NCBI GenBank assembly: GCA_036308645.1
Contig: JAXJVH010000007.1
Location: 1-64,000, forward strand
DNA from: Acutalibacteraceae bacterium
GTDB lineage: Bacteria > Bacillota > Clostridia > Oscillospirales > Acutalibacteraceae
Length of the DNA stretch: 64,000 bases
Direction: 5' to 3'
Part shown: positions 1 to 60,275 of the stretch, in pieces
Layout of the letters: every line of letters begins with the position of its first letter
Position numbering within the stretch: position 1 is the stretch's first letter
Program-made: the position numbers and the translations under genes
Notes under the pieces: generated by a model
The model's database searches: none
The model's input: the letters and a program-made list of their open reading frames with translations, nothing else
What the model was told of the DNA's origin: nothing

Positions 1-127
1 GACGGAGGGAGAGAAAGAATAAAGATAGGTATATACTTTGGCTTTTCTCTCCCTCAGTCTCGCTTCGTTCGACAGCTCCCTCGTCAGAGGGAGCCAATCT
101 ATGTCCCAACTTTTGCAAAAGAACCTT
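1..127 (+). repeat. Copy 1 (3' part, cut by the window edge) of a GGAGGGAG-rich multi-hairpin intergenic repeat. Contains the 3' inverted-repeat arm CTCCCTCGTCAGAGGGAG at 76-93.
   Basis: 122/127 identical to 11679-11805. Internal 12-bp stem GAGGGAGAGAAA/TTTCTCTCCCTC and a CCCTC-GTCA-GAGGG hairpin. Abuts the stop codon of the minus-strand acyl-CoA synthetase. Confidence 0.7.
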
Positions 128-11559: not shown

Positions 11560-11600
11560 AAATGCGATAGAAGTTTTTGCACTTCTATCGCATTTATTTT
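11560..11600 (+). terminator. Rho-independent terminator of maf
   Basis: 15-bp perfect stem AAATGCGATAGAAGT / ACTTCTATCGCATTT followed by ATTTT. Confidence 0.7.
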
Positions 11601-11639
11601 AGGTTCTATTCCTAATGTTGGGTTTTCAACACTTATCGC

Positions 11640-11805
11640 CTCCCTCTGACGAGGGAGGTGGCACGGCGGCTTTGCCGTGACGGAGGGAGAGAAAGAATAA
11701 AGATAGGTATATACTTTGGCTTTTCTCTCCCTCAGTCTCGCTTCGCTCGACAGTTCCCTCGTCAGAGGGAGCCAATCTACACCCCAACTTTTGCAAAAGA
11801 ACCTT
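11640..11805 (+). repeat. Copy 2 of the GGAGGGAG-rich multi-hairpin repeat, about 166 bp. 5' inverted-repeat arm CTCCCTCTGACGAGGGAG at 11640-11657 and 3' arm TCCCTCGTCAGAGGGAG at 11755-11771.
   Basis: 11679-11805 is about 96% identical to 1-127. Four predicted hairpins including CACGGC-GGCTTT-GCCGTG. Lies between the convergent maf and phoR genes. Confidence 0.7.
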
Positions 11806-11854
11806 ATTTTATTACGGGTTAATTTGCCGTTTATTTTTTACAGTACATTTTTAA

Positions 11855-59941: not shown

Positions 59942-60275
59942 TTTGTTCTCTCCCTTTTTTAAAAATAAAAAAATCCGTAATATGCAAAACGCTACTACAG
60001 ATTTCAAAAAAGTTCTTAATGAAAAAAGATAGCGCTCCACATTAATTAAATAATGTGACAGTGCGTTACATATTCTGCAATGCACCAACCAAGACTGTAC
60101 GGCAAAGAAAAAAGCCTTGATTTCGGCGATACTTCCTTTCACCCGATGTTATTTTTAAAACATGCCTTTTTTCATCGGAATACTGATAAGCACCGCACCT
60201 CTATCAAATATTTAATTTTACAAGGTAATAATAAACCTATATAGGTGTTTTGTCAAGAACTTTGTTAACAAAATA

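Follow-up and report, generated by a model that had tools for sequence, protein, structure and literature searches.

The repeated element at positions 11602-11803 of the window (the whole stretch of 64,000 nucleotides of Acutalibacteraceae DNA analyzed here) and its truncated counterpart at 1-125 are probably copies of a non-autonomous miniature inverted-repeat element (MITE) carrying a heterotypic pair of repeat units, which would most likely be a gene-less relative of a cassette in which the same units bracket a DUF559 nuclease gene. The element is 202 bp long and is bounded by the imperfect terminal inverted repeats GGTTCT...AGAACC. The left repeat, GGTTCTATTCCTAATGTTGGG (11602-11622, plus strand), forms the same end in two of the loci fetched for comparison (L184 and L186; fetched loci are cited here by their L numbers), and about 17 of its 21 positions are paired when it is set against the reverse complement of 11783-11803 (GGTTCTTTTGCAAAAGTTGGG). 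The right repeat (11783-11803, minus strand) reads CCCAACTTTTGCAAAAGAACC on the plus strand. The 8-bp sequence TTATTTTA directly precedes the element (11594-11601) and is found again, unchanged, directly after it (11804-11811), an equality shown by only 0.06% of the offset control pairs.

The interior consists of an inverted pair of units of about 50 nt, arranged box facing box. The inverted type C unit (11638-11691, minus strand; nhmmer unit profile, E = 8e-11) comprises the constant hairpin H2 at 11640-11657 (CTCCCTC TGAC GAGGGAG), a variable hairpin at 11660-11681 and the box GGAGGGAGAG at 11682-11691. It is separated by an AT-rich central spacer of about 32-33 nt (11692-11723), the ends of which lengthen the box-to-box stem, from a type A unit (11724-11773, plus strand; E = 4e-10) with the box TCTCTCCCTC at 11724-11733, a variable hairpin at 11735-11751 and H2 at 11754-11771 (TTCCCTC GTCA GAGGGAG). 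The initial annotation had placed a complete copy of about 166 bp at 11640-11805 and had taken inverted repeats of 17-18 bp to be its termini; these repeats turn out to be internal hairpins, and the true ends lie at 11602 and 11803.

Direct alignment of 1-127 with 11679-11805 gave 122 identities out of 127, which bears out the approximately 96% identity first reported. The second copy (1-125, plus strand) is cut by the start of the window and is identical at 120 of 125 positions to the matching part of the copy at 11602-11803. Of the type C unit it keeps the final bases, after which come the spacer, a type A unit at 47-94 (nhmmer E = 2.7e-11) and the right repeat at 105-125. It is followed by TTTAATTT, a right flank unlike that of the other copy. 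The unit profile matches the window at these three places only. The 18-mer CTCCCTCGTCAGAGGGAG occurs on the plus strand at 76-93 and its exact reverse complement at 11640-11657, and it is found with one mismatch at 11754-11771 (TTCCCTC...), no match being obtained in 100 shuffles. Every one of these 18-mers is itself a 7-bp hairpin, and direct and inverted repeats can be told apart only by the 4-nt loop, so that most of their inverted-repeat signal is palindromy. The four hairpins named in the initial annotation were all found where it had put them: H2-left (11640-11657), CACGGC/GCCGTG (within 11660-11681), a 12-bp stem (11683-11694/11722-11733) and H2-right (11754-11771). The region 11630-11815 folds far more stably than its shuffled versions on the two strands (z = -6.2 and -6.9; equaled by none of 200 shuffles). 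Its GC-rich character in AT-rich surroundings was likewise confirmed (52% in 11640-11805, as compared with 39% across the window), as was the location of both copies directly past the stops of minus-strand genes (137 and 11855).

Further copies were sought by comparing the six-frame translation of the element with predicted proteins reading into copies. Two more complete copies were obtained from the same sample series, one flanked by genes for an AP-endonuclease and an ABC transporter (L186) and the other by lexA and an ABC transporter gene (L184), and a more diverged copy was found after rpmA (L225). The flanking 8-mers are identical at all eight positions in the window copy (TTATTTTA on both sides) and in L186 (TTTAAGTT on both sides), and at seven of the eight in L184 (TAATAATT and TAATGATT) and L225 (TTTTTTAG and ATTTTTAG); no more than 0.06% of the offset pairs used as controls match as well as these duplications. 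The copies of the window, L186 and L184 lie at unlinked sites and share 94-96% identity. Six different right flanks (those of the two window copies, L001, L008, L184 and L186) part at or just after ...CAAAAGAACC, that is, immediately past AGAACC in L184 and one base later in the window copies, L001, L008 and L186. At least six insertion contexts were identified in the sample series: the maf-phoR spacer, the region downstream of an acyl-CoA synthetase gene, the AP-endonuclease/ABC transporter and ABC transporter/lexA spacers, and sites adjoining a VanZ-like gene and ispH. The terminal repeats and the 8-bp duplications at four complete copies identify the element as a MITE, which upholds the first guess that it was a multicopy miniature inverted-repeat element; the check on boundaries and target-site duplications proposed along with that guess yielded the ends and the four duplications given above.

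The metagenome contigs carrying the cysK-maf locus of the window either break within the element or run on into differing genes. In L001 (11540-11760) and L008 (3412-3625), the maf-side half of the element is joined to other right flanks, with a VanZ-like gene and ispH-S1, respectively, and the flanking 8-mers differ; these two are recombinants between copies or assembly chimeras. In L224 (1590-1700), the MITE copy is interrupted in its central spacer and followed by unrelated coding-like DNA, which suggests that another element has been inserted there. No empty site was recovered via the Maf homologues, among which relatives showing 89% and 78% identity were examined: the contigs of the former stop 43-59 nt after maf, and the latter has another gene downstream of maf. 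The closest named relative of this Maf protein belongs to an Acutalibacteraceae genome and is 67% identical. A metagenome scan with the 21-mer of the right end returned a single, unrelated contig.

Target duplications of 8 bp are a trait of the IS6 family (IS26), and are also made by ISL3-family elements. The right end of the element, GGTTCTTTTGCAAAAGTT, matches the IS257 end GGTTCTGTTGCAAAGTT at 16 of 17 positions, with one mismatch and one inserted base, while the left end matches it at 14 of 17; the same values (16/17 with the inserted base and 14/17) were obtained upon scoring the ends against the IS6 type GG(C/T)(A/T)CTGTTGCAAA. The IS6/IS1216 end was confirmed on pTEF3, where it adjoins an annotated IS6-family transposase. 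The likeness to the IS6 family (IS26, IS257/IS431, IS1216) lies in the right end and the 8-bp duplication, and the difference in the 14/17 left end. No IS6 transposase homologue was detected in the window or the fetched loci, no element with paired matching ends in the plasmids or viral contigs searched, and no autonomous partner encoding a transposase with the same ends in the window, the fetched loci or the viral contigs. Judging from their sequence, the ends resemble those of the IS6 family (IS257/IS1216), and the ISL3 family is also a candidate for the transposase; given the weaker left end and the failure of these searches to reveal a transposase with matching ends, we can only infer which enzyme is involved. 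An attribution of the ends themselves to ISL3/IS1251 was set aside, the documented match being that with IS257/IS1216.

The units forming the interior of the MITE belong to a much wider family. Each of them consists of CTCTCCCTC, A/C, the variable hairpin, GC/CC, TCCCTC GTCA GAGGGAG and CC/GC, and the constant hairpin H2 can be written CTCCCTC-GTCA-GAGGGAG. A 17-mer taken from this hairpin matches 26 viral contigs and at least 119 stretches of GTDB genomes; among the matches listed, the hosts are nearly all Oscillospirales MAGs recovered from the guts of animals and humans, together with several species of Bifidobacterium. The profile gave 268 matches in the 1.2 Mb of fetched loci, mainly in Oscillospirales. 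Two types of units can be distinguished (51 of type A and 58 of type C) by a compensatory switch from G-C to C-G in the closing pair of H2. As regards covariation, positions 4-7 of the variable hairpin are paired in 77-97% of cases, all four types of Watson-Crick pairs being represented, versus 34-42% when the partners were permuted. Box-to-box pairs with a 10-51-nt spacer account for 41 of the 49 inverted pairs and are nearly always heterotypic, and the spacer of the window pair (about 32-33 nt) is typical in this respect. Single units are mostly intergenic (90 out of 109) and show no orientation bias. Most of the doublets in other lineages lack the ends of the MITE and showed no duplication, and the MITE shell leaves the overall spread of the unit family unexplained. 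No duplications were evident around the doublets having other outer repeats, and a literature search with the sequence string of the unit yielded nothing.

Several other occurrences of the units were noted. Typical units, one doublet among them, were also seen in a phylum other than that of the Oscillospirales, namely in Bifidobacterium stellenboschense, B. catulorum, B. miconisargentati and B. pluvialisilvae (L071, L075, L083, L112, L136 and L148), and no DUF559 gene was found within these 8-kb stretches. Five GC-rich viral or genomic contigs (L011, L025, L029, L041 and L043) carry arrays of three to six units, which, unlike the doublets, all have the same orientation and are regularly spaced at intervals of about 150 nt to 2 kb. 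An integron attC-like reading of the same-orientation units in viral contigs was rejected because they have no R'/R'' core sites. The Klebsiella pneumoniae plasmid pKP13f (NZ_CP004000.1; L182, 1385-1560) carries two units, one of each type, in the vicinity of sul2, with rsmH on one side and a hypothetical gene on the other, and the same 58-bp match occurs in seven other Klebsiella and Enterobacter plasmids, which suggests that DNA derived from Clostridia is present on these resistance plasmids.

The strong folding and the covarying variable hairpin might also be expected if the element acted as RNA, either by stabilizing or terminating the transcript of the upstream minus-strand gene in its 3' UTR or as a small structured RNA, and the four right flanks ascribed to the species of the window do all face the 3' end of a minus-strand gene. 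In the DUF559 cassettes, moreover, the box GGAGGGAGAG lies at the position of a ribosome-binding site, and RNA is bound by the Vsr-like RAP/FASTK domains. That the two window copies have the same orientation is not general, however: in co-directional contexts, 13 single units have the same orientation and 18 the opposite one, the unit of the doublet facing the gene 3' end is of type A in 20 cases and of type C in 16, and units are also found between divergent genes. The hairpins are not followed by a T-run. On the strand opposite to the unit as written, most of their loops are C-GNA-G triloops or GNRA tetraloops, which favors DNA hairpins over RNA, the GNA triloops opposite the type A unit being suited to the former. 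The Rfam search showed nothing reaching the gathering score, and even with E values of up to 10, it brought up only weak chance matches with microRNAs and sRNAs and no relevant family. As the target duplications indicate that the copies arrive by insertion, an RNA function seems very unlikely, and the suggestion of a 3' mRNA-stabilizing structure or a structured RNA made in the initial annotation finds no support in the absence of both an Rfam family and an orientation bias. A hammerhead-like reading of CUGACGA was discarded upon inspection because the stem II partner is missing. At another place in the window, 60022-60211 on the minus strand, Rfam identified a lysine riboswitch aptamer (RF00168) matching the full model (116.8 bits, E = 1.6e-30).

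The units might, on the other hand, be a triplex or cruciform motif selected by the host for a chromosomal role, such as replication pausing or protein binding, and retained in place without being transposed. Their blocks would fit a purine-motif intrastrand triplex such as that of TMECO, a structure observed in vitro and a marker of unstable loci in E. coli, and both H2 and the box are invariant in spite of the saturation of synonymous sites in the neighboring gene. The terminal repeats and target duplications nevertheless denote insertion, the insertion contexts are unrelated, and the copies of the sample series are 94-96% identical even in the hairpin that varies between genomes. We therefore give this explanation hardly any weight as compared with that of a MITE.

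The link between the MITE and a gene comes from three loci in which the same inverted pair of units is 349 nt apart instead of about 30 nt, and in which the interval codes for a DUF559 protein of about 120 residues (Pfam PF04480, E = 4.5e-28; Vsr-like PD-(D/E)XK). The reading frame begins 3-4 nt past the box GGAGGGAGAG of the type C unit and ends within the type A unit. The C-terminus of 77 of the 120 closest of 4931 DUF559 homologues (82-98% identical) reads ...SLPQS...APSSEGA, and that of most of the other close homologues listed reads ...LSLSQLR, both tails being translated units; nearly all of these 120 thus terminate within a unit. Among eight independent loci, six show the order type C unit, gene, type A unit, and two have only the 3' unit. 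Alignment matches the arms of the window element to those of the L157 cassette, the type C unit being near-identical and the sequence past the type A unit common to both, and the cassettes of L157 and L181 are followed by degenerate versions of the right end. The fact that the same two units bracket DUF559 in related Oscillospirales and that degenerate outer sequences follow the cassettes makes the MITE a likely gene-less relative of the cassette, whether it descended from the latter or gave rise to it. L184, L186 and the DUF559 cassettes may belong to the species of the window or to other species.

The window itself contains no DUF559 gene. The idea that its spacer might be a remnant of the DUF559 frame was rejected, since 205 of 500 shuffles scored equally. 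BLAST searches with all the doublet spacers revealed one clear DUF559 remnant, in L101 (5290-5340): this 51-nt spacer includes about 25-38 nt of the 3' end of DUF559 in the antisense orientation (34 bits, versus a maximum of 26 with shuffled sequences), and the L101 doublet is the one clear deletion derivative of the cassette. Two other kinds of repeats were observed in the same material. A 47-nt tandem repeat, GCCTTGCCTCCCTCTGACGAGGGATGCGGAGTGTATCGATTAACTTAAC, consisting of the constant hairpin only, flanks the DUF559 gene in L157-L166, at about 100-200 nt on the upstream side and 100-300 nt on the downstream side, and its number varies between samples from one to at least three copies at the same locus. 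A second, unrelated repeat family (TGTAGGGGCGACCCTGTGTGGTCGCCC...), which is absent from the window, breaks contigs in the same sample series (L184 3400-3760 as compared with L185; L186 2510-2700; the ends of L167-L169) and shows a 179-bp difference in copy number between two samples.

Each exact DUF559 protein keeps to one genomic context in all the samples in which it occurs, this being a site after glyS, before a PAP2 gene or before an LMWPc gene. The dN/dS ratios range from 0.05 to 0.13 and synonymous sites are saturated, which shows that the gene is old and constrained and is not a recently spreading transposase; for the same reason, the high identity between the proteins was not taken to reflect a recent horizontal spread. 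The signature D...ELDG..H is invariant. The sole solved relative in terms of sequence is 3HRL, an uncharacterised gonococcal protein, and the AlphaFold model, whose confidence is moderate (pLDDT 66), has matches in 3HRL, in the catalytic domain of the homing endonuclease I-Bth0305I and in RAP-domain proteins. Tails encoded by palindromes were found in 23 of 111 diverse DUF559 representatives (from a library clustered at 50%) versus one after shuffling. No link between DUF559 and repeats was found in the literature searched.

These features raise the question as to whether DUF559 itself disperses the element, by nicking folded units, the repair or copying of which would seed doublets elsewhere, as has been proposed for RAYT in the case of REPINs, the terminal repeats then being incidental. 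Like the RAYTs, DUF559 lies between two units, keeps to one context and is strongly constrained by purifying selection; both units and heterotypic doublets are also widely found outside the MITE shell; the nearest characterized fold to the predicted structure is that of the I-Bth0305I catalytic domain; and the frequency of palindrome-encoded tails points in the same direction. In the subfamily to which the window copies belong, however, exact 8-bp duplications lie beside conserved terminal repeats, which is the signature of a DDE transposase, DUF559 has no known biochemical activity, and the window is devoid of the gene. Dispersal of this element by DUF559 is therefore improbable, though it has a better claim to attention than the RNA and host-motif explanations.

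The MITE is inserted into AT-rich intergenic DNA, generating the 8-bp target duplication, which implies that a DDE-type transposase acting in trans made staggered cuts. The cargo between its ends is the inverted heterotypic pair of units of about 50 nt, each made up of a C-rich box, a hairpin that changes in sequence but retains its pairing, and the constant hairpin. Any action of DUF559 on the units would be a separate matter. It is conceivable, and we suggest it tentatively, that DUF559 proteins (YcjD-type, Vsr-like) are partner enzymes of BoxC/PIT-type repeats across phyla, in a REPIN-RAYT-like relationship. The enzyme might then recognize the constant hairpin, triplex or cruciform and drive the copying, homogenization and local instability of the repeats, and its gene might survive through its position between two of them.

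In E. coli K-12 (NC_000913.3 1351040-1351830; L175), the stop codon of the DUF559 gene ycjD lies in a CCCTCTCCC block and its start codon is overlapped by a perfect 16-bp hairpin; a TMECO/BoxC repeat lies in the fabI-ycjD spacer, 190 nt downstream, and between the two stands a remnant duplicated from the ycjD 3' end. The site at 164520-164640 in L183 is an E. coli comparison site listed with this observation.

As a MITE, the element is ordinary, and its interest lies in its cargo, a BoxC/PIT variant associated with a conserved nuclease, which provides a testable lead. BoxC/PIT/TMECO repeats have been known since the 1990s, and their origin, partner protein and function are not known; DUF559 is a very widespread domain having a solved structure and no known role. 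What is new here is a Firmicutes counterpart of the BoxC-type repeats, nearly always tied to a strongly conserved DUF559 gene, and a lineage in which a MITE with clean target duplications encloses the repeat pair. Concrete substrates and enzymes are thus available for addressing both questions, and the recurrent assembly breaks and spurious SLPQS...APSSEGA tails in MAGs of gut Clostridia are explained. If DUF559 were the partner enzyme, this would also explain why BoxC was first found beside ycjD in E. coli and why no transposases have been found near TMECO sites.

The closest kind of repeat described so far is that of BoxC/PIT/TMECO, the likeness including a block pattern that is compatible with a triplex. 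Holder et al. (2015; PMC4666352) described these repeats as three-block intrastrand-triplex sequences of types A and B, the inverted doublets of which are always A + B; they are strictly intergenic, show no strand bias, form a triplex in vitro and are associated with local genomic instability in E. coli, and a mobility gene was explicitly stated to be absent. Likewise, the opposite strand of the present unit shows a C-block, a loop, a G-block, a linker and a second G-block (CTCCCTC / GAGGGAG / GAGGGAGAG at 11640-11691, with the mirror arrangement on the other strand at 11724-11771). There are also two types of units, close inverted doublets mix both with their third blocks facing each other, the locations are intergenic with no strand bias, and the order of the blocks is the same as in the E. 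coli hrpB-mrcB doublet. The differences are that the blocks are 7 nt long (CTCCCTC/GAGGGAG) instead of 9 nt (CCCTCNCCC/GGGNGAGGG), that a covarying hairpin of 15-30 nt replaces the 3-nt second loop, that the hosts are Firmicutes and Actinobacteria, namely Oscillospirales and some Bifidobacterium, rather than Proteobacteria, and that the window doublet is enclosed by a MITE shell. The window units do not conform to the published pattern, CCCTCNCCC N3-6 GGGNGAGGG N3 GGGNGAGGG, and since the loops in the published search were limited to 1-6 nt, the present family was out of its reach.

With the MITEs and mobile insertion cassettes bounded by IS ends, the window element shares its size of about 200 bp, its terminal inverted repeats, its intergenic location, its multiple copies, a fixed 8-bp target duplication, the lack of a transposase gene and the existence of a gene-carrying relative with the same inner arms; but this relative encodes a nuclease and not a transposase, and the interior belongs to a separate and far wider repeat family. 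The resemblance to Correia elements (Neisseria) and to RUP and BOX (pneumococcus), mentioned in the initial annotation, is limited to their being small, structured, multicopy intergenic repeats: they differ in their sequence, termini, duplication length and internal modules, and neither a sequence relation nor an Rfam match indicates any kinship. Like REP/BIME and REPIN-RAYT, the present family consists of imperfect palindromes occurring singly or as inverted doublets, the copies within a genome are alike, and the repeats flank a single-context, constrained nuclease-type gene. The gene flanked by the units is DUF559 (PF04480; PD-(D/E)XK), however, and not a Y1 (HUH) transposase gene, which was noticed in none of the fetched loci; and the units are about 50 nt long with two hairpins, those of the window subfamily being accompanied by target duplications, which REPINs do not have.
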